Shown here one piece after another: positions 1-19,281 of a stretch of DNA of 64,000 bases. Source of the DNA: Thermomicrobiales bacterium. GTDB lineage: Bacteria; Chloroflexota; Chloroflexia; Thermomicrobiales; UBA6265. The stretch lies in NCBI GenBank assembly GCA_045804965.1, contig JBJMMD010000016.1, positions 293,642 to 357,641 on the forward strand, read 5' to 3'. Every line of letters begins with the position of its first letter. The stretch's first letter is position 1. A program made the translations under genes and the position numbers. The notes beneath the pieces were generated by a model, which made no database searches, was not told where the DNA came from, and worked only from the letters and a program-made list of their open reading frames with translations.

Positions 1-1
1 C

Positions 2-181: not shown

Positions 182-211
182 CCCTCAAGATAGGCAATCT
201 GTCCGACTCAT

Positions 212-243
212 GCCCTCTCCTGCGCTTGCGCGCAGGAGAGGGC
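212..243. repeat. GC-rich perfect hairpin (14-bp stem, 4-nt loop), related to repeat family B
   Basis: gccctctcctgcgc ttgc gcgcaggagagggc. It has the same ccctctcc..ggagaggg hairpin theme as the elements at 4452-4607 and 48152-48279. Confidence 0.7.
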
Positions 244-381
244 GACCCCTTAAGGCCAGGCAAGTAGTCTTCCAGACCTTAGGTTAATCTCCACTCATGA
301 TCCAAATCGGATGCATCCCCTCGCCGATCTTCTTCGGCGTGCCGCCCGCGGGTATCCGCACGCGGCGAGGATCCTGGAGAA

Positions 382-1581
382 CTACCTACTTGATCGGTCC
401 TCGCTAAGCGCGACCGCCAGAGCTGAAATTAATTCGTCAACTTGTTCTTCTTGCCAAACCAGCGGCGGGAGCAAGCGGAGAGCCAGGTTCCCCGCCGGCA
501 ATGCGAGGACGCCGTTTTCTTGCAGGCCCCGCAGTGTTGGCGTCACGCGCTCTTTGAGCTCAATCCCGATCATCAAGCCCCGGCCGCGAACTTGACGGAC
601 CTTTTGGCTGTTGAGGGTTTCAATCCGGCCGATGATCTGGGCCCCGAGTACCTCTGATCGCGTGCAAAGATTGCGCTCTCGGAGCGCGGTCAGCGTTGTT
701 ACAGCCGCCCGGCAGGCGAGCGGATTGCCGCCGAAGGTCGTGCCGTGCGCGCCGCTCGGCATGGCACTGCTGACGGCGTCTGTGACGAGGGTGAGACCGA
801 TGGGGAATCCGTTCGCCAGCGCCTTGGCTGTGGCCAGGATATCGGGCGTGACGCCGGAGCGGGAGATCGCGAATGGGACGCCGGTCCTGAATGCCGTTTG
901 AACTTCGTCGGCAATCAAGAGCGCGCCGTGGCGCGTTGTCAGATCGCGGGCGGCCTGAAGGTAGGCGTCGTCGGCCGGATAGATGCCCGCTTCGCCCTGG
1001 ATCGGCTCGATGATGACGGCGGCGGTTTCGCCGTCGACCGCCGCTTCGAGCGCCGCGACATCGTTGAAGGCAACATGCGTGGCCGGCAATGGCAGAGGCT
1101 CGAACGGCGTCCGGTATTTCGGGTCGGCGGTCGCGGAGAGTGCGCCGAGGGTTCGGCCGTGGTAGGCGCGGCGGGCGGCGACAATGTTGGGCCGACCGGT
1201 AGCCGCGCGGGCGAACTTGAGCGCGGCTTCGATCGCTTCCGCGCCCGAGTTGCTCAGGAACGCGCGCGGCAATCCAGCGGGCGCGATCTTGGCGATTTCG
1301 GCCAGCAGCTCGGCCCGCACGTCGCTGTAGAAGCTCTGGTGGCAGGTTGATAGCGTCGCGAGCTGTTCGGCGAGGGCAGCAGTAAACTCTGGGTCGGCAT
1401 GACCGAGAACCGCAACCCCGTAATTGCTCATCGCGTCGAGGTAGCGGCGGCCCTCGCTGTCAAACAGGTAGGGACCTTCGCCGCGGAGCAGGGCGATTTC
1501 CCGCTTGGCGTAGAGCGGGAGTTGATGATCGTGCTCGATCCGCTGAATCTCGTCGAGCGCCATCGTGGCGGTCGTGGTCAT
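382..1581 (-). CDS. lysJ: class-III PLP aminotransferase, [LysW]-aminoadipate semialdehyde / acetylornithine aminotransferase type
   Basis: 399-aa ORF with SNSGAEAIEAALKFAR, LLIADEVQTAF and TTFGGNPLA motifs. It is the last gene of the LysW operon. Its ATG overlaps the stop of the upstream gene (ATGA at 1578-1581). Confidence 0.85.
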   Translation of the reverse strand: MTTTATMALDEIQRIEHDHQLPLYAKREIALLRGEGPYLFDSEGRRYLDAMSNYGVAVLGHADPEFTAALAEQLATLSTCHQSFYSDVRAELLAEIAKIAPAGLPRAFLSNSGAEAIEAALKFARAATGRPNIVAARRAYHGRTLGALSATADPKYRTPFEPLPLPATHVAFNDVAALEAAVDGETAAVIIEPIQGEAGIYPADDAYLQAARDLTTRHGALLIADEVQTAFRTGVPFAISRSGVTPDILATAKALANGFPIGLTLVTDAVSSAMPSGAHGTTFGGNPLACRAAVTTLTALRERNLCTRSEVLGAQIIGRIETLNSQKVRQVRGRGLMIGIELKERVTPTLRGLQENGVLALPAGNLALRLLPPLVWQEEQVDELISALAVALSEDRSSR

Positions 1582-2108
1582 ATGGACTCCTTGGTCATGA
1601 GCGGTCGGATAATCTGTTCAATCCAATCTTGGATCGGCTCACCCGAGTGATATATCACTTCACCTTCATCGGCTGACGGAGGTTGCATCTCGCCAGAAAC
1701 CAGGGCGAAATCCTCGTCTCGCACGTGCGGCCGCGCGTTCGTCGTTCGGTTTTCGTCGCGCCGTTGCTTGGCCTCTGCCTCCGAGACGTCGACATAGACG
1801 ATCGTCGCCGGCACGCCCTGTCGGGCCGCGATCCGCGTCAAGCGCTGGCGGTGAATCTTCCGATAGCTCGTCGCGTCGAACACGGCTGAGTTTCCCGCCG
1901 CCAACACCTCGTCCAGTTTCTGAAATGACGCGCGATACGCCTCGATCCAGTCTTCGCGAGTGGGTGCCTCTGCATTCAAATCCAATCCGCGCTCGCCATG
2001 GACCGAATCGAGCTCAACATGCGCGAGATCAAGCTGTTCCGCCATCGCCTTCGCCAGCGTCGATTTACCGGAGAACGGCAGACCGCAAAGGATGAAGAGC
2101 CGTTGCAC
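1578..2108 (-). CDS. P-loop ATPase/kinase-like protein (AAA_33-like)
   Basis: Walker A motif GLPFSGKST. I chose GTG at 2108 because the ORF-track N-terminus (to 2213) runs into the palindromic repeat at 2148-2277. It is translationally coupled to lysJ. Confidence 0.65.
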   Translation of the reverse strand: MQRLFILCGLPFSGKSTLAKAMAEQLDLAHVELDSVHGERGLDLNAEAPTREDWIEAYRASFQKLDEVLAAGNSAVFDATSYRKIHRQRLTRIAARQGVPATIVYVDVSEAEAKQRRDENRTTNARPHVRDEDFALVSGEMQPPSADEGEVIYHSGEPIQDWIEQIIRPLMTKESI

Positions 2109-2147
2109 GCAATGAAATTCCTGTCCATATTCGCCCGGGGCTGAAAT

Positions 2148-2277
2148 CACCCAGAGGGTACCCGGGGCTACAAATGACGAAGCCCTTCCAGGGCTGAACA
2201 CGACGCTTTCCACACGGGCCGTCGTCAGCCGGTCTTGAGCCGGCTTCGTAGGTTGAGCCCCGGGTACCCTTCGGGTG
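2148..2277. repeat. 130-bp palindromic MITE/REP-like element (family C)
   Basis: The 21-bp terminal arms cacccagagggtacccggggc (2148-2168) and gccccgggtacccttcgggtg (2257-2277) are inverted repeats with 2 mismatches. Internal segments also pair (acgaagcc/ggcttcgt, ggctga..cgacg/cgtcgtcagcc). Confidence 0.75.
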
Positions 2278-2329
2278 CTTGAGGCCCGCGCACGCGGCCC
2301 AGGCGCTCAGGCTCTATGCGTTTCCGCGT

Positions 2330-3157
2330 CTACTCTCTTTGGGCCACTACTGCCCGCCGCACGACTGTCCCCTCGCCCGCCAGCGCTCTTTGCACCGGAT
2401 GTTCAACCCGCGCGTCCGCAAATTGGACGCGCTCGACACCGCGCTCGACCGCGCCGACCGCGGCTTCGACTTTGACTTTCATGCGGCCGGCCGCGGCTGC
2501 GAGCGCCGTATGCGGCGAAGCGGCATCGATTTCGTGAATCAGCGTCGATTCATCCACTTTGTCGGCGAGGAGACCTGGCGTGTCGGAGAAGAAGATGAGC
2601 GTCTCGGCCCCGAGCGCGATTGCCAATTCGAGCGCCAATTTGTCGCCGTCGACGTTGATGGGAATCCCGCCCTCACTCAGTGCCGGAGGGGTCAATACCG
2701 GCAGGTAGCCGCCGTCGAGCACGAGCCGAACCAGGCGGGTATCGATCGCTTCCAAGGTACCGGCGTGATCGTCGCGGAGCACTTTCGGTTTGCCGTCTTC
2801 CGCGCCACGAATGACGGCCTTGCGGCGGCCGAAGGCAATGCGACCGTCGAGACCGGCCAGGCCGACGGCATTGACACCGGCCGCTTGCAGCTTGCCGACG
2901 AAGGTCTTGTTGACCTTGCCGCAGTAAGCCATCAACATAGCATCCATCGTTTCGCGATCGGTGTAGCGGGTGACGCGCCCCTTGTCATTCGTGATCATCC
3001 GCGGCGGCATCCCGAGCGCGGCGCTGAGGCGACTGAACTCAGTGTTGCCGCCGTGGACGAGCACGATCGGTTCGCTGATGGCCGCCAGGTCGGCCGCGAA
3101 CCGTTCATAGACGGTCTCATCGATTGCGGCTCCGCCGCCGATCTTGAGCACGAGCAT
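2330..3157 (-). CDS. lysZ: amino-acid kinase family: [LysW]-aminoadipate kinase / acetylglutamate kinase
   Basis: MLVLKIGGG.., VLVHGGN and INVDGDKLA motifs. ATG at 3157 is preceded by GGAGAAGGAAA. The ORF-track extension to 3292 covers an inverted repeat. Confidence 0.85.
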   Translation of the reverse strand: MLVLKIGGGAAIDETVYERFAADLAAISEPIVLVHGGNTEFSRLSAALGMPPRMITNDKGRVTRYTDRETMDAMLMAYCGKVNKTFVGKLQAAGVNAVGLAGLDGRIAFGRRKAVIRGAEDGKPKVLRDDHAGTLEAIDTRLVRLVLDGGYLPVLTPPALSEGGIPINVDGDKLALELAIALGAETLIFFSDTPGLLADKVDESTLIHEIDAASPHTALAAAAGRMKVKVEAAVGAVERGVERVQFADARVEHPVQRALAGEGTVVRRAVVAQRE

Positions 3158-3247
3158 CGAGTAAGTTTCCTTCTCCTTGTCATTCCGAAGGTCTTCCACC
3201 GTCGTCCTGAGCGCAGATCCCCCATCAATCCGTGCGTATACCCCCTC

Positions 3248-3330
3248 GTCATGCCGAGCGAAGTCGAGGAATCTAGTCGTTTTTAAGGCCAAAGAAGAAC
3301 ACTAGATGCCTCGACATCGCTCGGCATGAC
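3248..3330. repeat. inverted-repeat element, family A (30-bp arms, 23-nt spacer)
   Basis: gtcatgccgagcgaagtcgaggaatctagt (3248-3277) versus the reverse complement of actagatgcctcgacatcgctcggcatgac (3301-3330): 28 of 30 positions match. It lies between lysY and lysZ. Confidence 0.8.
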
Positions 3331-3354
3331 GAAGACGGTCAAAGTCGAACCTGA

Positions 3355-4401
3355 TCAAATAGGATGCAATCCCGCGAAATCGATACCGCACGTTTCTTCG
3401 TAGCCGCAGCGGATGTTGAACGCCTGCACCGCTTGACCCGCCGCGCCTTTCATCAGGTTGTCGAGAGCCGCGATCACGACGACGCGATGGGAATGCGGAT
3501 CGCGCTCGAAGCCGACATCGCAATAATTGCTGCCCGAGAGGATCTTTGGTTCCGGATAGCGATGAATTCCCGACGACTCCTTGACGATCCGCATGAACGG
3601 CTCGTCCTTGTACGCCGCGCGGTAGATCAGCCAGAGGTCTTTCTCGGTCAGCGGCTCGCTCAGGAAGACGTGCGATGTGGCGACGATCCCTCGCACCGCT
3701 TCGATCGATGTCGCCGTAAACGCGATTTCCGGCTTGACGCCGTTGAAGGTCAACTCCTGGATGATCTCGGCGCTGTGCCGGTGGCCGGTCGGCTTAAACG
3801 AGCGAATCACGCCGCTGCGCTCAGGGTGATGGGAAGCCAAGCCCGGTCCGCCGCCTGAACCGGACGACCCCGTCTTCGCCTCGATCGTCGTTGGAATCCG
3901 GCGATCGACCACGCCCGCCCGGTAGAGCGGATAGAGCCCGAGGATCGATGTCGTGGCCATGCAACCGGCGCTCGAGATCAGGTCGGCGGAGCGGATCTCT
4001 TCCCGGTGCAGCTCCGGAATGCCGTAGACGAAGTTGCGGAGTTCACCAGCGAGCGTGTGTTCGTGGCCGTACCATGTCGGATAGGCGTCCGGGTTGTTGA
4101 GGCGGAAGTCGGCGCTGAGGTCGATGATGATTCTCGCCTTTTCCCGGAGCTCGGTCATTTTGTTCATCGACACCCCATGCGGGAGGGCGATGAAGAGGAC
4201 ATCGACCGGCGCCAGCGTTTCGACGCTCGTAAACTTCAGGTCGGTGCGCTTGCGCAGATTTGGGTGGATCGAGCGGACAAATTTACCGGCGCTTCGCTCC
4301 GACGTGACTTGGGTGAGACTCGCGCCAGGATGGTCGAGCAGGAGCCGCACCAACTCCCCTCCCGCGTACCCCGACCCCCCAACGACGGCGACATTGAACA
4401 T
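3355..4401 (-). CDS. lysY: [LysW]-aminoadipyl-phosphate / N-acetyl-gamma-glutamyl-phosphate reductase
   Basis: MFNVAVVGGSGYAGGEL Rossmann N-terminus, SSAGCMATT Cys motif, 348 aa. AAGGAG lies 10 nt upstream of the ATG. Confidence 0.85.
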   Translation of the reverse strand: MFNVAVVGGSGYAGGELVRLLLDHPGASLTQVTSERSAGKFVRSIHPNLRKRTDLKFTSVETLAPVDVLFIALPHGVSMNKMTELREKARIIIDLSADFRLNNPDAYPTWYGHEHTLAGELRNFVYGIPELHREEIRSADLISSAGCMATTSILGLYPLYRAGVVDRRIPTTIEAKTGSSGSGGGPGLASHHPERSGVIRSFKPTGHRHSAEIIQELTFNGVKPEIAFTATSIEAVRGIVATSHVFLSEPLTEKDLWLIYRAAYKDEPFMRIVKESSGIHRYPEPKILSGSNYCDVGFERDPHSHRVVVIAALDNLMKGAAGQAVQAFNIRCGYEETCGIDFAGLHPI

Positions 4402-4451
4402 TGAACCTGAACTCCTTAGTTTTCATCGACCGAGCTGTTGGCCAGCCCGGA

Positions 4452-4607
4452 TATTCCCTCAACCTCTGACCCCTTCTCCCTCGCGAGGGAGAAGGGGCAC
4501 CCTCGTAGCGGCTGGTATAAGACGAGGAGGACTATTCTTTATGCCTCATTAGCCGTCCCTCTCCCTTGCGAGGGAGAGGGTGGCGCGAAGCGCCGAGTGA
4601 GGAAGTT
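4452..4607. repeat. palindromic element, family B (degenerate copy)
   Basis: Hairpins ccccttctccctcgcgagggagaagggg (4470-4497) and ccctctcccttgcgagggagaggg (4557-4580), followed by tggcgcgaagcgccgagtgagg. It is collinear with the element at 48152-48279 and fills the lysX-lysY gap. Confidence 0.7.
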
Positions 4608-4610
4608 CCC

Positions 4611-5507
4611 CTAATCCGCAGCCGCCGCGGCCCCAACCTCGACCCGCCTCTCCCGACCCGCGCGGCCGACTTCGAGCACATAGTCGATGATGCGCGCGGG
4701 AATGTTGACACCGGTCGTGTCGATGCTATTGCGGAACTCCATCGTGTAATTCACTTCGTTGACGAGCAAGCCCCGATCGCTTTCGAGGAGGTCGACCGCG
4801 ACGACTCCGCCCCCAACCGCGCAGGCGGCTGCTCGCGACAACTGGTCGAGTTCGGGCGTGACCGGGCAATTACTGGCCAGTCCACCACGTGCGGTGTTCG
4901 TGATCCAGTGCGGTGAGTCGCGGTAGATCGCGCAGATCGTCTCGTCGCCGACGACGAATGAGCGGATGTCGCGACCTGGCTTGTGGACGTACTCCTGGAT
5001 GTAGAACGCGCCATGGTGGAACGAGCCGAGCGTCACTTTGTGTTCCAAAATCGCCTCCGCGGCGTCCCGGTCATTGACCCGTGAGAGCAGCCGGCCCCAG
5101 GAACCGATGGCTGGCTTCAAGACGACCGGATAACCAATCTCCTCGATTGCCTCCAACGCCGCTTCCGGCGTGAAAGCGATGATCGTGCGCGGGCTAGGCA
5201 CACCGCCGCGGACAAGCGCGGTTGTCGTCAGCAGCTTGTCGCCGCAGGTGTTGGCGACGTCGTAGGTGTTGACCGTCGGCACACCCCAGTCGTTCAACAC
5301 TTTCAGTGAATAGAGCGCGCGCAAATGGTTGATGCAACGTTCGATCACGACGTCGCAGGCGATCGATGGCCGGAGCAGATCGAGCTTCAATGCACGGTCG
5401 TCGAAGCGGACGACGTGCACACCCCTGCGCTCGAACTCGGTCAGGAGCAGCTTTTCTTCGACCCGGACCCGCGAGAGCAGGATGCCGACAGTTACCTGAT
5501 CGTCCAC
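4611..5507 (-). CDS. lysX: RimK/LysX-family ATP-grasp ligase (alpha-aminoadipate--LysW ligase type), paralog 1
   Basis: [25 protein letters not shown] and [15 protein letters not shown] motifs. GTG at 5507 has GGAGG 5 nt upstream. The ORF-track extension to 5657 covers the T-box leader. Confidence 0.8.
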
Positions 5508-5846
5508 GGATGCCTCCACGTTGCGCCGAGTGGCTGGTGAGCCTGATTCGTCTGTTCGACGCGCTTGCAACAATGCACAAAGCCCCCGTCCAAAGGACGG
5601 AGGGCTTCGCTCCGTGGTACCACCTTTGTTCGCCGGCCCTCGCGGGAACGGCCTCACCGGGCGCCAACACGCCCTGGCTCGGTAACGGGAGCACCCGGCC
5701 GGTTCTAATCCGGTGAGCTACTAGCTCATCGTTTCTTCCGGCGGCTCGGGGGTCTTCTTCAGAATCGGATCTCTCCGCGGACCTTGCACCAATCGTCCGC
5801 TCGCTGGGGCGCTTCCCCGTTCCTAGTCTGTCCCCGTCATTGCCTC
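5508..5846 (-). promoter_or_regulatory. T-box riboswitch leader (candidate Lys specifier AAG at 5754-5756)
   Basis: Read on the minus strand. K-turn GGC-AAU-GA-C-GGGG pairs with CCCC-C-GA-GCC. AG bulge AGCGA is followed by stem GCGGAC/GUCCGC with distal loop GAUUGGUGCAAG. T-box core AAAGGUGGUACCACGG lies at 5612-5627. The antiterminator is CAAAGG[UGGUACC]ACGGAG..CUCCGUCCUUUG. Confidence 0.85.
5568..5604 (-). terminator. intrinsic terminator of the T-box leader
   Basis: CCCUCCGUCC-UUU-GGACGGGGG stem followed by CUUUGUGCAUUGUUG. It competes with the antiterminator because both use the CUCCGUCC segment. Confidence 0.7.
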
Positions 5847-5855
5847 GTTGGTTCG

Positions 5856-5884
5856 ATTATCGCTACCGAGCCGCTCAGACGCAA
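5856..5884 (-). promoter_or_regulatory. candidate sigma70-type promoter for the T-box/lysX unit
   Basis: Minus strand reads TTGCGT (5879-5884), 17 nt, GATAAT (5856-5861). The predicted start falls a few nt before Stem I (about 5844). The -35 overlaps the stop codon of the upstream gene. Confidence 0.4.
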
Positions 5885-6792
5885 GGTGCGGCTGGTTGCA
5901 GATGGTTCACTTCCGCGATGTGCAGTGCCTCGCTCACGATCTCCGCAGCGATATCGATCTCAGTCGTCGACATCAGTCCTTTGAACTCGCCGCCCGTGTT
6001 GACTTCGACGATTTCCAGTCCTTCCTGTGTTTCGACGATGTCGACTCCGGCCAATCGAGCGCCGACCGCGGCGCACGCCCTGAGCGCGATCTCTTCGATC
6101 TCAGGCGTGATTTCGCAGGCGACCGAGATCGCCCCGCGGGCGGCGTTGGTGATCCAATGCTCGGAGGTTCGGTACGACGCCGCGAGCACGCGATCGCCGA
6201 CGACATAGGCGCGGATGTCGCGATCCGGTTTCTGGATGAACTCTTGAACGTAATAGATATGGTGATGAAACGAACCGAGCTCCGCCTTTTGGTCGAGAAT
6301 CGCTTTGGCCTGCTCGGGCCCGTTCGCCTTTGCCAGCAACCTGCCCCAGGACCCAGTCACCGGCTTGAGCACGACTGGATATCCGAGTTGCCCACACGCC
6401 TTCATCGCCGATTCGACCGAGAACGCAAGCAAAGTGCGCGGCGTGGCGATGCCGGCGGCTTCGAGGGCGAGCGAGCAGGCCGCCTTGTCGTCGCACGTCG
6501 TGGTCGCGGCCGAGTGATTGAGCGTGGGCACGCCCCAGCGCTCGATCGTGCGCAAGGTGTACTCCGCGCGGCTGTGGACGACACAGCGGTCGAGGACGAC
6601 GTCGACGCCCAGCCCAGCGGAATCGGCGGACCGAGCCGAGAGATCGAGCACGAGCTCGCGGTCGAAGAGCGGCTTCACTTCGATGCCGCGGTGGCGCGCC
6701 GCGTTCAAAATCAGTTTTTCTTCGTCCCGCAAATGGGAGACAAGAACCCCGAGGCGGACACTTGCCCGGCCGTTGGAGGCGTGGGTGCTCAT
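5875..6792 (-). CDS. RimK/LysX/ArgX-family ATP-grasp ligase, paralog 2
   Basis: [24 protein letters not shown] and GVDIVET..EIVEVN motifs. ATG at 6792 overlaps the lysK stop (ATGA). Whether the substrate is Glu or aminoadipate cannot be told from sequence. Confidence 0.8.
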
Positions 6793-7871
6793 AGCGCCGC
6801 CAGTACCTCCGTCAACACCCGTACGCCCCTCAGGTATTCGTCGAGCACGATGTGCTCGTCGGGCGTATGGTCGAGCGTCGCATCGCCCGGACCATAGGCG
6901 ACGATAGGGCAGCGCCATACCGGACCCACGACCGTCATGTCGGACGTGCCGAGCTTGACGGTGAATCGCGGCTCGCCGCCGGCGGCGCGAATTGCACGCA
7001 GGAACGGCGGGACAAGCCGCGAACGCTTGTCGGAGCGGTAACCTTCTTGCACACCGTCAAAGGTGAGCACAGCGTCACCCGCCAGCTCTAATATTTCGGA
7101 TTGCAATTCCCGAGTGTCCACATCGGGCGGCAGTCGCAAACCAATCGCCATTCGCGCTTCGTCGTAGAGCCCATCGCTCTCGGTCCACATGCCGCGAACC
7201 GACGGCGTGACGGCGTTGAACAGACCGCTCACGCCTTCGTTTCTGGCGGCGCAGGCAGCGGCGAAGGCGTTCCAAAATGCTATCGCCCGCTCGCCGACCG
7301 ATGCGCCGGGACCAGCCGCGTGGCGGCATGCCTGGCGTAACCTGTAGGCGATCGGCATGGAGCCGCGGTAGCCGAGGCAAACGGCGTCCCAGCCACTCGG
7401 CTCGCCGATGATGCAGAAGTCAGGCGCGGGCCAGGTCGCGACCGCGGACGCCCCGGGCGAATTCAACGATTCCTCGCCGACCGCACCGACGACCGTGACC
7501 GTCGCGTTCAATCGTTCGGCCGCCATCGCCGCGGCCGCGACGAAGGTGGCCAGCGGACCCTTGGCATCGACCGCGCCGCGACCGTGAAGCACGCCGTTTT
7601 CGATCCGGACGGGGATGTTGCCCGGCACGGTGTCGATATGCCCGAGGAGCACGACCGATTTCGGCCCTTCGCCGATTACGCCAACAGCGTTGCCGGCTTC
7701 GTCCCGGTAAGCGCGGAATCCGCGCGCGTCCATGTGCCGGCAGAGGTACGAGACCGCTTCGGCCTCGCCGCCGCTCAGGCTCGGAATGGCAACCATACCG
7801 CGCAAGAGATCGACATGGTCTTGGTCGGTCAACGTGGCGCCGGCGACTTCAAGCGGAGAGAGCGACGTCAT
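6789..7871 (-). CDS. lysK: M20 metallopeptidase, [LysW]-lysine/[LysW]-ornithine hydrolase type
   Basis: [10 protein letters not shown] and [11 protein letters not shown] motifs, about 360 aa. ATG at 7871 has GGGAGG 6 nt upstream. The ORF-track start at 8000 overlaps the upstream gene too far. Confidence 0.8.
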
Positions 7872-8760
7872 CTGGCACCTCCCGCCCGAGGGCTCCGCCC
7901 TGCCCGTCGTCGAGCAGTTCGACCGCAATCGCGTCAGGTCGCAATGAGCCTGCCCATTCGACGGCCAATTTCGCAATCGCCTCGGCGACCGTCGTCTCAC
8001 CGAGTGCGATGGCGTCCCGGAAATCGGGAATCGGATTGACGTTCCAAACGACGGCTCCGGCGGCCATGTGCGCCACCTCGATCCCGATCAGCGACGCGCC
8101 GAGCGCCTTCGCGGCCAGCTCGGCTAAACCGTAGGCCGCCTTGGGTACATCATGGTCATGGCTGTCGACAGCCACGGCGACTCCATCGACGACGATAACG
8201 GTGACCCGGTCCGAACCGAGCGCGATCCCGGTCTGCACGAGCCCAATCAGATCCGCCTTGGCGCCGAGCACGTGGCGGTGCTCGAACACGGCCTCAGCTG
8301 TGTCTTCATCGATCAGCACGATCTCTTTCGATCCGGGTGCCAGCGGCAAGAACGTCGCCGGATAGCCACAGCGGTCGAGCGCGAGCAAGGCCGCATCTTC
8401 GGCGCAGACCAAATCGGTCAAGGGCCGAGGGATGCCGGCGGCGGCAAGCGCCATCGCGGTCGCGAGGCGGTCAGATATCGCCGCCACGCCGGCGTCGATT
8501 ACGCGGACGCCTTTCGCCCGCCAGACCGGGAGCAGGGCCGCTGCGACAGCGCGGTTCTGGCAACGATCGATCATCACCTCGGCCACAGTGCCGTCGTTCG
8601 CCGGGGCGAAGAACGGCTTCGGCGGGCCCGGACAAATGGGGAGTGGCAAGCTAGTAGGGGCGAGCGGAAGCGCCGGAACGCCGGCGTCCGCCAGCGTCTT
8701 GATCAGCTGCTTCTCTTCGACTCGCACGCGCGTGCAGAGCACGCCTACCTTCGCTATCAC
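7849..8760 (-). CDS. divergent RimK/LysX-like ATP-grasp paralog 3, catalytic motifs apparently degenerate
   Basis: The N-terminus [15 protein letters not shown] parallels Lys[16 protein letters not shown]. However, it has [15 protein letters not shown] in place of [15 protein letters not shown], VVWNVNP in place of LVNEVN, and no HWITN. GTG at 8760 has GAGGAG 6 nt upstream; an alternative ATG is at 8793. Confidence 0.6.
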
Positions 8761-8814
8761 CGTTGTCTCCTCAATCCTAACGTTCATCCTCATTCGTTCG
8801 CGTTCGATCGATTC

Positions 8815-8948
8815 CGCCGGACTGAAGTCCGGCGCTGAAACGACGAAGTCCCATTCGGGACTGAAATCGTCATTCCGAGCCTGCCGAGGAATCTCGTGCT
8901 CCTACTACTGTAGAACGAACAAGATTCCTCGACTTCGCTCGGAATAAC
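8815..8948. repeat. cluster of three palindromic units, including a family A inverted repeat
   Basis: Hairpins cgccggact-ga-agtccggcg (8815-8834) and agtccc-attc-gggact (8847-8862). Family A arms gtcattccgagcctgccgaggaatct (8869-8894) and agattcctcgacttcgctcggaataac (8922-8948). It fills the lysW to RimK-paralog gap. Confidence 0.75.
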
Positions 8949-8950
8949 GG

Positions 8951-9114
8951 TTACTCACCCCAGTCCTCGCCTTCTTCCGGCGCCAATCCGAGCGTTAACG
9001 GACTCGTCCCGATGACTTCCAGCTCCGCGCCGCAGTCTGGGCAGGGCACGATTTCGCCCTGCTCGACCCCGCTCAATTCGATTTCCGCCCCGCATTCAGG
9101 ACATGCCGCCATTT
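8951..9114 (-). pseudogene. lysW: LysW amino-group carrier protein, reading frame broken by an apparent 2-nt insertion
   Basis: ATG at 9114 (GGAGAGGAA upstream) gives [18 protein letters not shown]. The frame then shifts at CTCT (about 9059-9062). The next frame reads [35 protein letters not shown]-stop, with the hallmark C-terminal EDWGE. The span is 164 nt, which is 162 plus 2. Confidence 0.75.
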
Positions 9115-9152
9115 ACTCGTTCCTCTCCGCTCGTTTAGATCGAATCGACCCC

Positions 9153-10196
9153 TCAGCACAACGTATGCAGCAGCAACGCTTTATGGACATGTAGGCGGTT
9201 TTCCGCCTGGTCGAAAATGATCGACTGCGGGCCGTCTGCGACCTCGGCCTCGACTTCTTCTCCCCGTCGCATCGGCAGACAGTGCATGAAGACCGCGGTC
9301 GGTTTCGCCATTGCCATCACGCCGGTCGTCACCCGGTAGGCTGCCAGCCTGGTCGCCTTCTGCGTGCTCTCGTTCTGGCCCATGCTCTGGTGGACATCGG
9401 TGTAGACGGCGTCGGCTCCGGTCACGGCCTCCTCGAGGCGCTCAGTGACGGTAATCTTCGCCCCGCTCGTCGCGGCCAGTCCCTGAGCGATGCGGACAAT
9501 TTCTTCCACGGGATGGTAGTCAGCGGGGGCGGCCACGTTGACGTTCACGCCCATCGCCGAGCAGGCGAGGAGCAACGAGTTGCACATGTTGTTGCCATCG
9601 CCGAGGTAGGCAAAGGTCTGGCCCTTGAGATCGCCGAACCGTTCTTGGAGCGTAAACAGATCGCCCAGCGCTTCGATCGGGTGAGACTTCTCGGTCAGAC
9701 CGTTGAACACGGGCACCGATGCGCCCGCCGCAAAATCGAGCAGGTCCTGGTGCCTCGCGATGCGGCAGGCAACGGCATCGAGATACAAGCTCATGATCTC
9801 GGCGGTATCCTCGATCGTCTCGCCCCGGCGCAGTTGCAAATCGTCGGTACCGAGGAAGATCGTGTGCCCGCCGAGTTGCTCCATTCCGACCTGGAACGCC
9901 GTCCGGGTGCGCGTGCTCGGGTGCTGGAAAACGAGGCCGAGCGTCTTGCCGGTCAGAAAAGTGTGCGGCAGACCACTCCGCCGCATCCCTTTCAGCCGAG
10001 CCGCGGTGCCGAGCAGCTCGTCGATCTCGTCCGGCGCCAGGTCGGTGTCGAAGAGGACGCTGCGGCCGCGCAGACGCAGGCTGATCCCCGTCGGACCGTA
10101 CTCGCCCCGCGTGAAGCGATCGTCCGGCAATGCCTCGCCATCCCACCCTTGACTATCGTGTTGTGTCGTCGCGTCTACCACATCGGTCCCTAACAC
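9153..10196 (-). CDS. ornithine carbamoyltransferase-family protein, paralog 1
   Basis: FQHPSTRTR, DVHQSMG, HCLPMRRGEEV and FDQAENRLH motifs. It has HPIE where the family has HPxQ. The start (GTG at 10196) is uncertain. There is a roughly 40-aa N-terminal extension before LRGRSVLFDTDL. Confidence 0.75.
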   Translation of the reverse strand: MLGTDVVDATTQHDSQGWDGEALPDDRFTRGEYGPTGISLRLRGRSVLFDTDLAPDEIDELLGTAARLKGMRRSGLPHTFLTGKTLGLVFQHPSTRTRTAFQVGMEQLGGHTIFLGTDDLQLRRGETIEDTAEIMSLYLDAVACRIARHQDLLDFAAGASVPVFNGLTEKSHPIEALGDLFTLQERFGDLKGQTFAYLGDGNNMCNSLLLACSAMGVNVNVAAPADYHPVEEIVRIAQGLAATSGAKITVTERLEEAVTGADAVYTDVHQSMGQNESTQKATRLAAYRVTTGVMAMAKPTAVFMHCLPMRRGEEVEAEVADGPQSIIFDQAENRLHVHKALLLHTLC

Positions 10197-11278
10197 ATCG
10201 TGTGGAGCAGGAGCGCCTTCGACAGATGCAGCCGGTTTTCAGCTTGCTCCCAAATGATCGATTGCGAGCCGTCGGCAACCTCCGCCGTGACTTCTTCTTC
10301 CCGGTGCATCGGCAGGCAGTGCATGAAGATCGCACTTGGCTGCGCCGTCGCCATGATCTCTTGGGTCACTTTGTACGGAGCGAGCGCGACCGCGCGGGCT
10401 GCGCCATCGGTTTGGCCCATGCTGACGTGAACGTCGGTATAGACTGCGTCCGCATCCTTCGCCGCGACGTAGGGATCGTCAGAAACGGCGATCTTCGCGC
10501 CCGAGGCGCTGCCGAGCCACGTCGCGTGCTTCACCACGTCCGGAGCGGGCTGGAATTTCTCAGGCGCCGCCACCGAGACGCTGATCCCCATCGCCGCACA
10601 CGACAGCAGCAACGAACACACGACGTTGTTGCCGTCGCCGAGATAGGCGAGCTTCAGCCCTGCCAGCGTGCCGAACTGCTCTTGCAGGGTCAGCAGATCG
10701 GCCAGCGCCTGCAACGGGTGGCTCGTGTCGGAGAGCCCGTTCAGCACTGGAATCGAGGCCGATGCATGCAACGTCTTCAGATCGTTGTGGTCGGCTACGC
10801 GGGCGACAATCGCATCAACGTACCGGCTCAAGATCTGCGCCGTGTCGCCAATCGTTTCGCCCCGCTTCATTTGCAGGTCGTTGACGCCGAGAAAGATCGC
10901 CTGACCGCCAAGCTGGGCCATGCCGGCTTCCAAGGCAACCCGCGTTCGCGTGCTGGGATGTTGGAAGAGCATGCCGAGCGTTTTACCCGGCAAGTACGGG
11001 TGCGGCTCGCTCTTTTTGTGCAATCGCTTCAGCCGGGCCGCGGTTTCCAGCAGCTCGTGAATCTCGTCGGGCGTCAGATCGGTGTCGACCAGCACACTTC
11101 GCCCGCGGAGGCGGGTCGAGAGACTAAACGTCGCGATCTTGGACGTGGTCTGACCGCCGAGGGACACGGTGCGCGCGGCCGCCGGCATATCCGGCGTGAC
11201 CACCGGCGCGGTCGGCATCGTATGCAGGGCAGGACTATCAACAATAGGGGGCTGTTTGGCAGTCGAGAAGTCTTCCAT
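10190..11278 (-). CDS. ornithine carbamoyltransferase-family protein, paralog 2
   Basis: FQHPSTRTR, HPLQALADL, DVHVSMG and HCLPMHREEEV motifs. ATG at 11278 has GGAGGG 8 nt upstream. The ORF-track extension to 11641 is the T-box leader. Confidence 0.8.
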   Translation of the reverse strand: MEDFSTAKQPPIVDSPALHTMPTAPVVTPDMPAAARTVSLGGQTTSKIATFSLSTRLRGRSVLVDTDLTPDEIHELLETAARLKRLHKKSEPHPYLPGKTLGMLFQHPSTRTRVALEAGMAQLGGQAIFLGVNDLQMKRGETIGDTAQILSRYVDAIVARVADHNDLKTLHASASIPVLNGLSDTSHPLQALADLLTLQEQFGTLAGLKLAYLGDGNNVVCSLLLSCAAMGISVSVAAPEKFQPAPDVVKHATWLGSASGAKIAVSDDPYVAAKDADAVYTDVHVSMGQTDGAARAVALAPYKVTQEIMATAQPSAIFMHCLPMHREEEVTAEVADGSQSIIWEQAENRLHLSKALLLHTMC

Positions 11279-11625
11279 GGTGGTTTCCCTCCGGCTCTCG
11301 TCCGAGACGAGACGCTTCGCGCCTGCAACGTCCATTCGTCGCGGGCCGAAGGGGCGAGAGGCGTCAACTCCCGCGGTACCACCCTTCTTGCGCTGGGTTG
11401 ACCGAAGATCGGTCTGAGCGGCAAAACCCTGCGCATCTCTCGGTTGTTGCTCGCTTGGGAACCACCCAACCGGACCTACTTGCCATCCATCACCGACGTG
11501 CAGGACGCTTTCTTCGGCCGGCCGCTCAGGGGCGCGTTCCGGGTTCGGGCGCAGTTCCTGGACTTCCACCGTCTCCAGGTCGCTTCGGCGCGCGAGCCCC
11601 GTACTCCTCCCCGTCAATGCGGGCT
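11279..11625 (-). promoter_or_regulatory. T-box riboswitch leader (candidate Arg specifier CGC at 11534-11536)
   Basis: Read on the minus strand. K-turn CCGC-AUU-GA-C-GGGG pairs with CCCC-U-GA-GCGG. The 5-prime specifier-loop strand is AGGAGUA. AG bulge AGCGA is followed by stem CCUGGA/UCCAGG with distal loop GACGGUGGAAG. T-box core GGGUGGUACCGCG lies at 11372-11384. The antiterminator is GAAGGG[UGGUACC]GCGGGAG..CUCUCGCCCCUUC. Confidence 0.85.
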
Positions 11626-11785
11626 GGATGAGCGACAACACTGCCGCCCGTCCGTGAATACCTAAAAATTCAACTGTCAGGCTGTGGGTGAGCGCTGGCG
11701 GGCGACCGTCAGCGCGCGGTACGGAACCGTCGCGTCGGTCGCCCGAGCGGAGAGCGGGAGAGGCTCTCCGGGTGTGTTGTCAGCC

Positions 11786-13045
11786 TCATCGCATGACCTC
11801 CGCGTCCTGATGCAACCGCCGGTCCCGCTGCGCGGCGACCTTCTGTCCGAGTCCGAAGAGCCGGATAAAGCCCTCCGCGTCCGCCTGCCGGTAGACGTCA
11901 TCGGCTCCGAACGTCGCCAGGTCCTCTTCGTAGAGGCCGAATGGCGATTTTCGCCCGACCGCGACGCACGTGCCTTTGTAGAGTTTCAGCCGAACATCAC
12001 CGCTAACTGGTTCTTGCGTCTTCTCCACGAAGGCATCAAGCGCGGCTTTGATCGGCGTGAACCAGAGGCCATTGTAAACCAGATCGGCATAGTTAATTGC
12101 AAGCTGATCTTTTTGTCGCATGGTGAGCTTGTCGAGCGTCAAGTGCTCAAGCTCGCGATGGGCGGTCGCCAAGATCGTCCCACCCGGCGTTTCGTAGATG
12201 CCCCGGCTCTTCATGCCGACAAGTCTGTTCTCGAGCAGATCGACCCGGCCGACACCGTGCTTGCCGCCGAGCTCGTTCAGCAGCGCGAGCAGTTCCAGCG
12301 GTTGCAGCGGCTGCCCATTAACCGCCACCGGCCAACCTTGGTCGAACGCCACGGTGACGTATTCGGCCTCATCCGGCGCGGCTTCGGGCGCCACGGTCAG
12401 TTCGTAGGCATCGCCCGGCGGCTCGTTCCACGGGTCCTCGATTGCGCCCCCTTCATGTGAGAGGTGCCAGAGATTGCCGTCGATTGAATAGATCTTTGCC
12501 TTCGTCGCCGAAACCGGCACGCCGTGCGCTTCCGCATAGGCGATCGCGTCTTCTCGCGATTTGATTTCCCAGTGCCGCCAAGGGGCGATGACCTTCAGCT
12601 GCGGGGCGAGCGCCTGATACGTCAGCTCGAAGCGAACCTGATCGTTCCCCTTGCCGGTGCAGCCGTGAGCGACGGCGTCCGCGCCTTCGAGCATGGCGAT
12701 CTCGACCTGATGCTTCGCAATCAGCGGCCGCGCCATCGAGGTCCCGAGCAGGTACTTGCGCTCGTAGATCGCGCCCGCCCGCAGCGTCGGGAAGGCGTAT
12801 TCCTTGAGGAACTCCTCGCGCGCGTCGACAACGTAGGCCTTCGATGCGCCACTCGCGAGCGCCTTCGCCTCGATGCTAGAGAGATCGTCCGGCTGGCCAA
12901 CGTTGACCGCGGTCGCGATCACTTCGCAGTCGAAGTGTTCTTTCAACCAGGGAATGATGCAGGACGTATCGAGCCCGCCGGAATAGGCGAGAACGACTTT
13001 ACCGAGTGTTTGTTTATCAGTGGAAAAAGCGACCGGCGCGCTCAC
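11786..13045 (-). CDS. argG: argininosuccinate synthase
   Basis: [13 protein letters not shown]-type ATP-PPase motif, 419 aa. GTG at 13045 has GGGAGG 6 nt upstream. Confidence 0.9.
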
Positions 13046-13087
13046 GTGGACCTCCCGAGGTGCGGTTCAACCAAACACGAAACGAGG

Positions 13088-13180
13088 CGCCCGCAGAGCG
13101 GGCGGATCCGATCATGCCGAACGGGGTTCGCCCGTCCGGCTGGTACGTGTACGGCTGATTCGCTTCGGAAGCGGCGCCAT
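13088..13180 (-). promoter_or_regulatory. candidate argG leader: 22-codon Arg-rich ORF plus a terminator-like hairpin
   Basis: The minus-strand ATG at 13180 gives MAPLPKRISRTRTSRTGEPRSA, with TGA at 13112-13114; 5 of 22 codons are Arg (CGA, CGT, CGT, CGG, CGT). Hairpin CGCCCGC-UCU-GCGGGCG (13088-13104) is followed by CCUCGUUUCGUGUUUGGUUG and sits 42 nt before the argG start. Confidence 0.3.
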
Positions 13181-13316
13181 GGATCAGTCCAAGAAATGCA
13201 CAACAAAACACGTGACCGACGTCACAATCTGCTGAGAGGGTAGAGGTTCTTGCCGAGGATTGTCAAGAGGAAGCGTCGAATGCGGACCGCTGCCGAACCA
13301 GATGTCCGCCAGTGAT

Positions 13317-13405
13317 ACGACGAAGTCCTTCCCAGACTAGGGGAGCGCGCTTGGGGTTCAGTGTCGAAGAGACTTCGTCGTGTTAGCCTGGACTTCTAGT
13401 CCGGG
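13317..13405. repeat. palindromic element, family C-related
   Basis: Perfect 11-bp arms acgacgaagtc (13317-13327) and gacttcgtcgt (13371-13381), then hairpin cctggact-tct-agtccggg (13387-13405). The same acgacgaagtc and ggact..agtcc modules occur at 8815-8862 and 22837-22853. Confidence 0.65.
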
Positions 13406-13555
13406 ATGCCACTGCCAACATCGCGCGCAAAATGAGTCACGACCTCCCACAAGAGGCCAGAATTCCCAACTCCAACAGCGCTGCTCTCGTATCTAAGTAA
13501 TTCCTGTGGCAAACTACCGCGCGATTTCGCAATGCTTTGCGAGGGCCACACCCAA

Positions 13556-15344
13556 ATGCTCCGGCTTGTTCGTTACCTTAAGCCCTATTGGATCCCGCTT
13601 CTCGCGATGTTGGTTCTGTTGTTTGGCCAGACAACGGCCAACCTCGCACTACCCGACTACATGGCAAAAATCGTGAACGACGGGATTGCGAAACGGGACA
13701 CGAGTGTGGTCTGGCACACCGGACTCAAGATGCTCCTCGTGACGCTGATCGGCGGATCATGCGCAATCGGTGTCGGGTTCATGGCGTCCCGCGTTGCAAC
13801 TGGGGCCATCCGCAACCTCCGAGATGATCTCTTCTCAACAGTTGAAAATTTTTCGTTGCTCGAGTCAGTTCTCGACGGCATCGTTGATCACTCGCTGCAC
13901 AAACGACATGCAACAGATCCAGATGGTGCTGGTGTTGCTTCTCCGTCTTGGGCTGTTGGCGCCGTTCATGGGCATAGGCGCGGTGTTCAAGGCGTATCAA
14001 CTCGCGCCGTCAATGACGTGGATCATGGCGATCGCAATCGGTATTCTCTTCATCATCATCGTCACGCTCTTTACAATCACGATCCCAAGGTTCACGCGAC
14101 TGCAACTCCTTGTCGACAACTTGAGCCTCGTGACTCGCGAAACCCTCAGCGGCGTGCGAGTGATCCGCGCCTTCAATCGGGAGAATTACGAAGAAGCGAA
14201 GTTTGAGCGCGCAAATGAGGACCTGACTCACCTCAATCTCGTTGTCAATCGACTGACGGCGGTGATGCAACCGGTGATGTTACTGGTACTCAACTTCACC
14301 TCGATCACGGTGATATGGGTCAGCGCGCACAAGATTGAGGAAGGCACGCTCCAGATCGGCGATATGATCGCTTTCTTGCAATACGCGACGCAGGCGATCT
14401 TCTCGTTTCTCATGATTTCGATGATTTTCATCATGGTTCCGCGCGCCGCGGTTTCCACGAAACGCGCTGGCGAAGTGCTTGATACGCTATCAAGCATCCG
14501 CGATCCCGACCGGCCGCAGACAGTTCCGAACCATGGCGGGATCGTCGAGTTTCGTGACGTCTCATTTGCCTATCCCGGCGCCGAAGAGCCTGTCCTGCAC
14601 AACGTCTCCTTTGCTGCCCTGCCAGGCCAAACGACAGCGATCGTTGGTCCGACCGGAAGTGGTAAATCCACGCTGATCGGTCTCATCGAGCGCTTCTATG
14701 ACGTAACAGAAGGGCAGGTTCTCGTTGACGGCGTCGATGTCCGTAAGATGCAGCAACAAGAACTGCGCGCAAGAATCGGCTATCTCTCTCAGCGAGCCGT
14801 GCTCTTCTCCGGCACGATCGAAAGCAACATCCGCTACGGAGGTGGGACCTCGCCTGTCGAGCAAATCGAACGTTCAGCAGAGATCTCGCAGGCCACCGAG
14901 TTTGTTGAAAAGCTCGAGCAGCGGTATGGACACGCGATTGCTCAGGGTGGCGCTAACGTGTCAGGTGGGCAAAAGCAACGCTTGGCGATCGCCCGTGCAG
15001 TCGCACGCCAGCCCGAGATCTACATCTTTGACGACAGCTTCTCCGCTCTCGACTTCCGGACCGACTCGATCCTGCGCGCGGAGCTCGCTAACGAGACAAA
15101 GCATCGTACAGTGCTGATCGTGGCACAGCGCATCAGCACAGTCATGCGTGCGGAAAAGATCATCGTTCTCGACGCCGGAAAGGTCGTCGGGGAAGGAACG
15201 CACGAGGGATTGCTGCGGACTAGTCCGATCTACCGCGAGATCGCCGCTTCTCAGCTCTCTGAAGCCGAACTTGCAGTTTCTGGGGTCAGCAAGAACGGCG
15301 GTTCGGCGATCGAGTCTGACGGTCATGGGGAGGGAATTACTTGA
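13556..15344 (+). pseudogene. ABC exporter (fused permease/ATPase, YheI/LmrC-like), frameshifted near 13865-13868
   Basis: The frame from ATG 13556 gives MLRLVRYLKPYW..RDDLFSTVENFSLLE (TM1-2). The family sequence then continues in another frame (ORF 13770-15344) as ..QFSTASLITRCTNDMQQIQ.., with Walker A GPTGSGKST and signature SGGQKQR. Confidence 0.75.
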
Positions 15345-17362
15345 GTTCCCAACGGCCTTCAGCGCAGTCGAATGGACCTGCCCGGCCGACGTTCTTCGGA
15401 CGCGGTCCTGTCGCGATGATGGGAGGTCCGGCGGAAAAACCAATGAACTTCGGACGAACGATCCAGCGTCTCGTTTCCTACCTGCGACCCTTCTGGTTCA
15501 CGCTCATAGTGGTGCTGATTTTCGCAATCGCGAGCACGGTCTTTGCCATTCTCAGCCCTCGCATACTCGGCAATATCACCAACACGATTGTCAGCGGCTA
15601 TACCCAGGAATGAGTCTACGACCAGGTCAAGGCAAGACTACCCCCCGGCACTCAGATCCCTCCAGGAACGACCGGCGCCGATTTCCTGGCCAATCTGCCG
15701 CCAGAAGTTCTCAAGCAGATTCCAGAATCGGAGCAAGCTGATATCGCGACGATGGATCTTTCGCACCGTCCCGGTATCGATTTCGCAGCCATCCGCATGT
15801 CGATCGAGCTCCTGATCGGTCTCTTCTTGCTCAGCGCGCTCTTCAACTACGTTCAAGCGTGGCTGATGACAGGCGTCTCGCAACGAGTGACATTCGATCT
15901 CCGTCGAGGAATCTCGGAGAAGATCGACCGCTTGCCCCTGCGCTACTTCGACACCCGAACTCATGGCGAAGTACTGAGCCGGGTCACCAATGATGTTGAG
16001 ACCATCAACCAAACGCTGAATCAGTCGCTCGCGCAGATTGTGACGTCGGTGACTACGATAATCGGCGTTCTCATTCTGATGATCTCGATCAGCTGGCAAC
16101 TGACGATTGTCGCGTTGCTCGTGCTATCGCTCAGTTTCTTCTTTATGCGCCTGATCATTGGACGGTCACAGGGCTACTTTGTTCAGCAACAGGTTTCTCT
16201 CGGCCAGATTCATGGCCATGTCGAGGAGATATTCTCCGGTCACACGATCATAAAAGCGTTCGGCGGCGAGAAGCAGTCCATCGACACATTCCGAGGTCTC
16301 AACGCGAGCCTCTACGACTTCGTCAACAACCTCGGCTATGTCGCGGTAGCGGTCTTCGGCGGTTGGCCCGCCATCCAAGGCAAGGTGCGCATTGGCGATA
16401 TTCAGGCATTCATCCAGTACATGAACCAGTTCACTCAGTCGATCACGCAAACCGCTAACGTGGCGAACGTGATGCAGTCGACTGCGGCGGCAGCGGAGCG
16501 CGTCTTCGAATTCCTCGACGAACCAGAAGAACGCGCGGATCCGGTAGCACCGGTGCGGCTGACCGACGTCCAGGGCGAGGTCGCGTTTGACCACGTCGTC
16601 TTCGGTTACGACCTCGAGCGGACGATCATCAAAGATTTCTCCGCCCATGTCCAACCCGGACAGCGAGTTGCAATCGTCGGTCCGACCGGCGCGGGCAAGA
16701 CCACAATGGTGAACCTGCTGATGCGCTTCTATGATCCCGATCAGGGGGAAATCCGGATCGATAGGACGTCGACAAAGGAGATGACGCGCGCCGACGTGCG
16801 CCGGCTCTTCGGCATGGTGCTCCAGGACACCTGGCTCTTCACCGGAACGATCGAAGACAACATCGCTTATGGAAGTGACACCGCGACGCCAGAAGCGGTC
16901 CGTGCAGCCGCCGAAGCGGCGCACGCCGACCACTTCATCCGCGCGCTCCCAGGCGGCTACCAGATGGAGCTGAATGAGGAGGCGGACAACGTCTCGGCGG
17001 GTGAAAAGCAGTTACTGACGATTGCCCGCGCCATGCTCGGCAACGCACCGATGTTGATCCTCGACGAGGCGACGAGCTCGGTCGACACGCGAACGGAAGC
17101 GGTGATCCAGCAGGCGATGGACCGCCTAATGATGGGCAGGACAAGTTTTGTGATCGCGCACCGCCTATCGACAATCCGGAACGCCGATCTCATCCTGGTG
17201 ATGTGTGACGGCAACATCGTCGAGCAAAGCACGCACGACAATCTGCTCGCCCAAGGCGGTTTCTACGCTGCGATCTACAACAGCCAATTCACCCCGCCTC
17301 TAATTTCAAATGAGGAACAAGCGACTGTTCCCGCCGAAGCCGCAGCCCAAGCGAGCGATTGA
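15341..17362 (+). pseudogene. ABC exporter partner (YheH/LmrD-like) interrupted by an in-frame TGA at 15611-15613
   Basis: TTG start at 15341 (GGAGGG 6 nt upstream, TTGA overlap with the upstream stop). ORFs 15341-15613 and 15752-17362 are in the same frame, and the stretch between them reads through cleanly (..GYTQE*VYDQVKARLPPG..). Walker A GPTGAGKTT and signature SAGEKQ are present. Confidence 0.75.
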
Positions 17363-17640
17363 GGTTGGGACCCGACCCCTGTTCGTTGTAGGCGTGAACG
17401 GCGTCCGCCCTGGGTCGAAAGCAAACCCGGTACACACGTTGGAACGGCCCTTGTCAGTACGAGGGCGGATGTCCTCCAGCGTAACGAACCATGCAATTCG
17501 CGAATGCGCTTGGTTCCCGGGCGTTCGGGCGATCCAATCCGACATTGCCTGAGGATGCGACAGGTCCGCAATCCGGAATTGACGGTGCGGTAGGCGTTAT
17601 CACTTTCTGAAGAGAAGTTGGCACGCCTTTTGCAAACTGT

Positions 17641-19224: not shown

Positions 19225-19234
19225 CTGTAGCGGC

Positions 19235-19269: not shown

Positions 19270-19281
19270 GGCGCCGCGTCG

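Follow-up and report, generated by a model that had tools for sequence, protein, structure and literature searches.

A predicted non-catalytic LysX/ArgX paralogue retained between lysW and lysK in the LysW-dependent gene cluster of Thermomicrobiales

The lysine and arginine pathways that use the amino-group carrier protein LysW serve as a model for how two pathways diverged, and all their described components are enzymes or the carrier itself. The stretch of DNA analysed here, hereafter the window (64,000 nucleotides (nt) of a Thermomicrobiales bacterium; contig JBJMMD010000016.1, positions 293,642 to 357,641 of the forward strand, assembly GCA_045804965.1), raises the question of what a third LysX/ArgX paralogue does beside lysW when the residues that make such a ligase work appear to be lost from it. 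This gene, which we call psX (7849..8760, minus strand), specifies a protein of 303 residues and lies between lysW and lysK, a position that was given in the initial annotation of this DNA and is borne out in the window and in the related loci; the same cluster encodes two canonical ligases, X1 and X2. The open reading frame (ORF) of psX is open over 7849-8793, its likely start being the GTG at 8760, which has a GGAG 5' of it, and an identical gene call for its protein (P0001) is found on 7 public contigs. The answer developed below is that psX is best read as a predicted pseudoenzyme that has been kept by selection within the arginine half of the cluster. The coordinates of the cluster all refer to the minus strand.

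The initial annotation had pointed to three catalytic motifs that are changed or lost in psX as compared to the two canonical paralogues, and it had suggested a possible pseudoenzyme. All three changes hold in a MAFFT alignment with X1 and X2, where the LVNEVN of the canonical paralogues becomes VVWNVN in the psX of the window, and the suggestion is well supported by the loss of motifs together with the purifying selection described further on. For a wider comparison, we aligned 99 canonical LysX/ArgX sequences from many phyla with 17 psX orthologues (MAFFT). The K, G-S-W-G-R, Q, DIR, W-T-N, D, E and N positions are each 98-100% conserved in the canonical set (100% for both the ATP-binding Lys and GSWGR), and these same positions are replaced or deleted in every psX sequence; likewise, 42 further full-length psX cluster representatives keep 0-3 of the 17 key residues. 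Going through the motifs, the strand Lys of VVLKP is a Leu in the window and L, M or F across all psX sequences, the GSWGR loop is unrecognisable and two residues shorter, the hinge Q-E has become Q-T or Q-A, the Arg of the D-I-R motif is absent, and the HWITN...ARGG loop has suffered a deletion of 13-14 residues in 100% of the psX sequences. As for the Mg ligands, the Asp of VAVD is variable (E in 35%), the Glu of NEVN is replaced by Asp in 88% of the members and by Asn in the window, and the Asn of NEVN is variable.

What psX retains of its relatives lies mostly outside these motifs: the canonical enzymes have 84 positions with a conservation of 85% or more, and psX keeps 27 of them, chiefly within the N-terminal domain (RxRxEEK, D/E-R) and the helix EH(K>R)xxLG. 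In a Pfam scan psX was matched by the pre-ATP-grasp domain only (27.4 bits for a cut-off of 27), with no match to the RimK ATP-grasp domain PF08443, and the TIGR02144 LysX profile gave 72.2 bits against a cut-off of 275.6, only profile positions 2-187 being aligned. The rescue of the active site in a shifted register, the point on which the initial annotation had let its suggestion hang, was considered and rejected: no catalytic Lys, Glu or Asn was placed by MAFFT, by HMMER against PDB sequences or by Foldseek, and the pseudoenzyme reading stands. Together, these comparisons demonstrate the descent of psX from a LysX/ArgX ATP-grasp ligase, and they predict firmly that it can no longer bind ATP-Mg or activate the C-terminal carboxylate of LysW. 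The public annotation of psX proteins as LysW-aminoadipate or LysW-glutamate ligases is contradicted by this loss of catalytic residues and is almost certainly wrong.

The fold of the ancestor appears to have outlived its catalysis. The AlphaFold model of psX, built from a 65-sequence family alignment (predicted local distance difference test 85; predicted template modelling score 0.82), keeps the LysX-type three-domain fold, and its best Foldseek matches are LysX (3VPD), ArgX (3VPB), the entry 5I47 and LysX/ArgX (5K2M), with E values of 1e-17 to 1e-19 (3.6e-19 for 3VPD, with a template modelling score of 0.74-0.80). Only a Pro-rich insert of 20 residues (about residues 40-60) and the last 30 residues or so are disordered in the model. 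psX is both like and unlike the LysX/ArgX family (TIGR02144; 3VPD, 3VPB, 5K2M): it has the three-domain fold, the N-terminal RxRxEEK and (D/E)R motifs and a gene placed beside lysW in a lysW-X-...-lysK/Y/Z/J cluster, whereas all ligands of ATP, Mg and the acyl-phosphate are gone, the HWITN...ARGG loop is deleted, the Pro-rich insert and the disordered tail are additional, and about half the basic residues remain. The invariant residues of the psX cleft are Arg98, Glu160-His161-Arg162, Gln176, Trp239 and Arg248.

psX is not a decaying gene. A word-indexed search returned 65 psX clusters at 40-80% identity, all of about 300 residues, the named ones coming from Thermomicrobiales; a profile search of 1.84 billion representatives gave 71 matches below an E value of 1e-30, with about 45 full-length psX clusters at the 50% level, all of which keep 0-3 of the 17 key catalytic residues. 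The interpretation of psX as a pseudogene is ruled out on three grounds. First, about 60 Thermomicrobiales genomes at the species level carry an uninterrupted ORF. Second, the ratio of non-synonymous to synonymous substitution rates (dN/dS; Nei-Gojobori) is 0.14-0.23 for psX in the closest pairs, as compared to 0.02-0.16 for the neighbouring genes, these ratios being approximate as dS reaches 0.7-1.7; with respect to the closest relative (L088) the values are 0.18 for psX, 0.125 for lysK, 0.069 for X1, 0.045 for X2 and 0.062 for lysW. Third, 20 columns of the psX family are invariant and a further 32 nearly so, and they are spread over the three domains. These findings demonstrate, as far as comparison of genomes can, that psX is kept by purifying selection; the presence of such selection in related genomes (dN/dS 0.14-0.23) was the other check proposed in the initial annotation, and it leaves the pseudoenzyme reading in place. 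The co-occurrence of the paralogue with lysW, also proposed there, was found throughout: the order otcA-(otcB)-lysW-psX-lysK-X1-X2-lysY-lysZ-lysJ is present in 17/17 loci seeded with psX (GTDB species genomes), and lysW-psX-lysK-X1 in 49/49 loci from Thermomicrobiales that extend far enough upstream, as retrieved by a separate, X1-seeded scan.

As a step towards the origin of psX, we considered its closest relatives. One of its two best matches in a PDB sequence search is 5I47, a structural-genomics entry from Sphaerobacter thermophilus DSM 20745 named 'RimK domain protein ATP-grasp', for which our literature search found no paper. The loci coding for 5I47 at 68-94% identity have the order lysW-5I47-lysK-X1-lysY-lysZ-lysJ, and psX and 5I47 thus occupy the same genomic slot, lysW-X-lysK-argX, and fall into a common neighbour-joining clade. 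At GDK and at EHK, 5I47-type proteins and psX have the same derived replacement of K by R; they also have a DFR motif in common, and both lack GSWGR and the E-x-N pair. The two proteins are only 29% identical, and in 5I47 the strand Lys, the DIR-type Arg and a vestige of the W-containing loop persist, all of which are missing from psX, so that 5I47 would be an intermediate stage of degeneration relative to psX.

Two other genomes of Chloroflexia/Thermomicrobiales (L040 8541-9494 and L043 3629-4705) encode X1 and X2 and, in the slot of psX, a third ligase that is nearly canonical. This third protein keeps the K, QE, DIR, D and E, with GSWGR changed to GGDTQ, HWITN to EWVTS and the last Asn to Gly; it may still be active, and it could reveal the original job of the third paralogue. 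Independently degenerate LysX-like proteins were also noticed in the lysW-X-lysK slot of two Logan contigs (P0156, L085 109-930; P0135, L087 2041-2907), and P0166, P0172, P0197 and P0209 are further degenerate LysX-like proteins. The loss of catalysis in the lysW-lysK slot seems to be recurrent or graded, not a single event. The slot proteins (psX, 5I47-type and L040/L043-type) form one neighbour-joining clade in 100/100 bootstraps, apart from the X1 and X2 clades, and psX groups with the 5I47-type in 77/100. Because the relatives in this slot range from nearly canonical to degenerate and form one clade, psX represents, on the sequences compared, the extreme and most degenerate form of a third paralogue that has lost catalysis by degrees and has kept its position between lysW and lysK. 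The clade offers a natural series from nearly intact (L040/L043) through half-degenerate (5I47) to fully dead (psX) proteins, a clean case for the study of pseudoenzyme origins, and the psX slot gives the orphan entry 5I47 a functional context. Pseudoenzymes and LysX/ArgX are already known; a dead LysX paralogue in a carrier-protein cluster, of which our literature searches found no description, is new to the literature found.

The question then becomes with which genes psX is expressed. Two full-length T-box leaders (Rfam RF00230) were detected in the cluster, both scoring under the gathering score and both possessing the canonical GGUGGUACC box. The first (11347..11626; 52 bits, E 1.5e-9) carries a CGC (Arg) specifier, conserved as CGC followed by a purine in three related loci, and stands upstream of otcA, 5' of otcA-otcB-lysW-psX-lysK-X1. 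The second (5590..5849; 75 bits, E 1.8e-15) lies between X1 and X2, 5' of X2 (lysX)-lysY-lysZ-lysJ, and carries an AAG (Lys) specifier, conserved as AAG+A in two related loci; its orthologue in L001 passes the gathering score with 97.6 bits. Since an Arg-specific T-box heads otcA-otcB-lysW-psX-lysK-argX, psX is predicted to belong to this arginine-responsive unit. The two T-boxes split the LysW cluster into an Arg half (otcA to argX) and a Lys half (lysX-lysY-lysZ-lysJ).

Within the Arg half, psX overlaps lysK (6789..7871, the [LysW]-lysine/ornithine hydrolase of the M20 family, 360 residues, NF003367 412 bits), whose start was placed with the help of the profile alignment and of its ribosome-binding site. 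The psX stop codon TGA (7851-7849) lies 20 nt past the lysK ATG (7871-7869), and our reading of the sequence agrees with the 23-nt overlap (7849..7871) between the 3' end of the paralogue and the start of lysK that the initial annotation described. The psX-lysK overlap amounts to 8-32 nt in 54/59 related loci, and to exactly 23 nt in 31 of the 59; among the loci with this slot, L040/L043 show 14 nt of overlap, L083 shows 11 nt, and two from Sphaerobacter show none. The Shine-Dalgarno sequence of lysK (GGGAGG, 7878..7883) is embedded in the psX codons for R-E-V, and a GGAGG-like site precedes the embedded lysK start in most orthologous loci. In turn, the lysK stop and the start of X1 (5875..6792, the canonical ArgX-like ligase) overlap as ATGA (6789-6792). 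psX, lysK and argX would thus be three consecutive, translationally chained genes, and it follows from their overlapping stops and starts that the three proteins are probably made together.

The spacer between lysW and psX (8761-8950, 190 nt) folds into a hairpin of about 30 bp and two small hairpins (-91.5 kcal/mol, z -7.3); in the relatives it measures only 55-100 nt. A repeated mobile element was considered and rejected for it, no second copy being present in the window, and no promoter or terminator consensus was found between lysW and lysK. The structured spacer may serve to stabilise or process the mRNA and so to set the level of lysW relative to the genes downstream.

With regard to transcription, contigs from four soil metatranscriptomes cover psX at a depth similar to that of its neighbours, and one contig of 670 nt, identical to the window, spans the psX-lysK junction; these data suggest that psX is transcribed.

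From these findings, the most economical reading would be that psX serves the LysW-dependent ornithine/arginine module as a binding protein without catalytic activity, produced alongside LysK and ArgX. More precisely, we lean, with some reserve, towards the proposal that psX is a non-catalytic, selected protein of the arginine-responsive LysW half that serves as an adaptor or structural subunit in a station where LysW is recycled. In such a station, psX would act by protein binding and not by catalysis: it would pair with LysK, and perhaps with ArgX through the old LysX dimer surface, LysK would free LysW from ornithine, ArgX would then reload it with glutamate, and the remodelled psX cleft (Arg98, Glu160-His161-Arg162, Gln176, Trp239, Arg248) may be a site for an acidic ligand or for an effector that is an amino acid. 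The more ambitious version of this proposal, in which psX forms the catalytically inert centre of a complex for LysW recycling, bridges LysK and ArgX, senses an amino-acid effector in its cleft and has the carrier partitioned between the arginine and lysine branches, is put forward tentatively and with more doubt than assurance; if true, amino-group-carrier-protein pathways would gain in psX their first described pseudoenzyme with a regulatory or scaffolding role. A dead ligase kept for long across a whole bacterial order, and chained to the enzymes that unload and load the carrier, points to an unrecognised non-catalytic component of the LysW pathways, the purpose of which is perhaps flux partitioning, carrier recycling or feedback.

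Several observations weigh against the adaptor proposal, or against parts of the evidence behind it. First, the contacts of psX with LysK, ArgX or LysW are predicted ones, and its co-variation with other members of the cluster (distance-matrix method, partial r of 0.25 for LysW, 0.20 for X1, 0.19 for LysK and about 0 for X2, lysY and otcA) is weak, singles out no partner among LysW, ArgX and LysK, and is confounded because these genes have a history in common as one block. Second, the DIR arginine of LysX/ArgX and RimK holds the C-terminal carboxylate of the acidic tail (PMC10375531), and this arginine, which holds the C-terminal Glu of LysW, is lost in psX. In addition, psX has 17 basic residues as compared to about 30 in the canonical enzymes, and a net charge of about -11. 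Because of both features, the docking of the acidic LysW on psX in the canonical way is unlikely, and the loss of the DIR Arg and of basic residues would argue against a simple binding of the LysW tail by psX. Third, psX is the fastest-evolving gene of the cluster, with 41-54% identity where its neighbours have 60-85%, i.e. it evolves 2-3 times faster. Fourth, the metatranscriptome contigs are strand-less and may contain carried-over DNA. Fifth, neighbour-joining is a distance method and the branches are long, so that long-branch attraction could inflate the support for the slot clade; this clade has support independent of the tree, because its members also have the slot position and the derived residues in common.

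Sixth, the C-terminus of psX, R-E-V-x-x-D-V-A-L-S-A, is conserved because it encodes the Shine-Dalgarno sequence and the overlapped start region of lysK. The last seven codons of psX overlap the lysK start in nearly all loci, and the codons for R-E-V read CGG GAG GT. The idea that 'REV..DVALSA' is a feature of the protein (e.g. a tail mimic) was rejected, R-E-V being encoded by CGGGAGGT, the Shine-Dalgarno sequence of lysK. The conservation of the psX C-terminus is accordingly best ascribed to embedded lysK signals and not to a protein motif.

Turning to the other explanations, the one that survives best makes psX a regulatory dead paralogue of ArgX (X1) only, which would form a hetero-oligomer with it through the inherited LysX dimer/tetramer interface and switch it on or off, e.g. 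by sensing arginine or ornithine in a relic substrate pocket, with no part for LysK. It would fit the location of the best conservation between psX and the canonical enzymes, in the N-terminal and central domains (RxRxEEK, (D/E)R, EH(K/R)..LG); it would also fit the constant co-occurrence of psX with X1, X2 being dispensable and Sphaerobacter-type loci having only X1, and the place of psX in the Arg-T-box unit. There are precedents as well, HisZ being a dead-paralogue partner of the active HisG. Dead paralogues that activate an active partner are also known from trypanosomatids, namely the AdoMetDC prozyme and DHS (PMC5201418, PMC3663545), and Ser4/Ser5 provide the case of an inactive aminotransferase paralogue that sits in a hetero-oligomer and is encoded in a carrier-protein gene cluster (PMC11726168). 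Like the dead partners in HisZ/HisG, the prozymes and Ser4/Ser5, psX derives from an enzyme of the pathway, is catalytically dead, has been kept by selection and has its gene next to those of the active enzymes; unlike in those cases, a hetero-oligomer or regulatory effect of psX would be a prediction, and the active paralogues look complete on their own. X1 itself keeps all its catalytic residues and looks self-sufficient, its partial co-variation with psX is weak (0.20), the gene coupling of psX is tightest to lysK and not to X1, and the psX/ArgX oligomer is hypothetical. We judge this explanation unlikely, while it comes nearest to the adaptor proposal.

According to the next explanation, psX is a relic without protein function, the frame of which is open only to deliver ribosomes to the embedded ribosome-binding site and start codon of lysK. 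This would agree with the lysK Shine-Dalgarno sequence and start codon lying within psX in more than 90% of the loci, with psX evolving faster than any other gene of the cluster, and with the 30-residue tail of psX being unconserved apart from the overlap. It is set against a dN/dS of 0.14-0.23, which indicates a constraint at the amino-acid level that goes beyond the maintenance of a frame, the 20 invariant and 32 nearly invariant columns over three domains, an AlphaFold model that is confident from only 65 sequences, and the two Sphaerobacter loci that keep an orthologue without any overlap; furthermore, a mere leader ORF should grow shorter with time, but psX remains at about 300 residues. 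We therefore regard a mere leader function as very improbable. Hardly credible at all is the last explanation, an enzyme with a different chemistry (for example one that transfers or hydrolyses a LysW adduct without ATP, or that uses another phosphoryl donor bound at Arg98, Arg162 and Arg248), which could appeal to the invariant polar cleft residues specific to psX or its clade (R98, E160, H161, R162, Q176, W239, D/N240, R248) and to the Asp that replaces the Mg-binding Glu in 88% of the members, but which would have to do without the large loop over the active site, deleted in psX, and with putative metal ligands that differ from member to member; to our knowledge, no ATP-grasp enzyme works when it lacks the strand Lys, Gly-rich loop and E-x-N pair.

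The adaptor proposal for psX is to be set within the rest of the locus, where the minus strand from 382 to 13045 holds a single amino-acid biosynthesis cluster. The first gene in the order of the cluster is argG (11786-13045). It is followed, after the Arg leader, by two tandem ornithine carbamoyltransferase genes assigned by TIGR00658 and synteny, otcA (stop at 10190, start near 11200 but not fixed) and otcB (9153-10196); the pair (9153..11200) scores 370 and 355 bits with TIGR00658. The SMG and HCLP motifs are normal in both proteins, and the pair lies directly upstream of lysW. Several relatives have otcA alone, without otcB, including L005, L006, L008, L010 and L017. The carrier gene lysW (8951..9112) was recognised from its translation, a protein of 53 residues with the C-terminus EDWGE (PF21344, 71.8 bits; TIGR01206, 77.4 bits).

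As concerns the two canonical ligases, X1 scores 304 bits with TIGR02144 and has a complete set of catalytic residues, and X2 (4611..5507, GTG start), a LysX of the alpha-aminoadipate type, scores 342 bits with the same profile. Using the definition of the LysX/ArgX specificity motifs given in PMC12998189, X2 has the motif F-I-T-NS, the same as the aminoadipate-specific LysX of T. thermophilus, and X1 has Y-S-A-GL, which is not of the LysX type and is closer to the ArgX type. In L088, the closest GTDB relative, represented by a metagenome-assembled genome from long reads, the matches to otcA and X2 are broken into two or three pieces and psX is intact; the split genes are probably assembly frameshifts and not biology.

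The cluster ends with lysY (3355-4401), lysZ (2330 to about 3160), an AAA_33 P-loop ORF (1578-2213) and lysJ (382-1581). The AAA_33 ORF, a KTI12-like protein of 211 residues, sits between lysZ and lysJ, and homologues occur at the equivalent place with 72% identity in L088 and 30-42% identity in L096, L098, L099, L104, L106, L107 and L136. No S-adenosylmethionine (SAM) riboswitch was reported in positions 1-14000 of the window; in two relatives, SAM riboswitches stand a few kb upstream of the cluster (L001 4087-4188 and L008 3049-3156, both on the minus strand). Past argG, the plus strand of the window (13770-20232) carries ATP-binding cassette transporter genes unrelated to psX, which encode two fused permease-ATPase exporters, a solute-binding protein and a permease.

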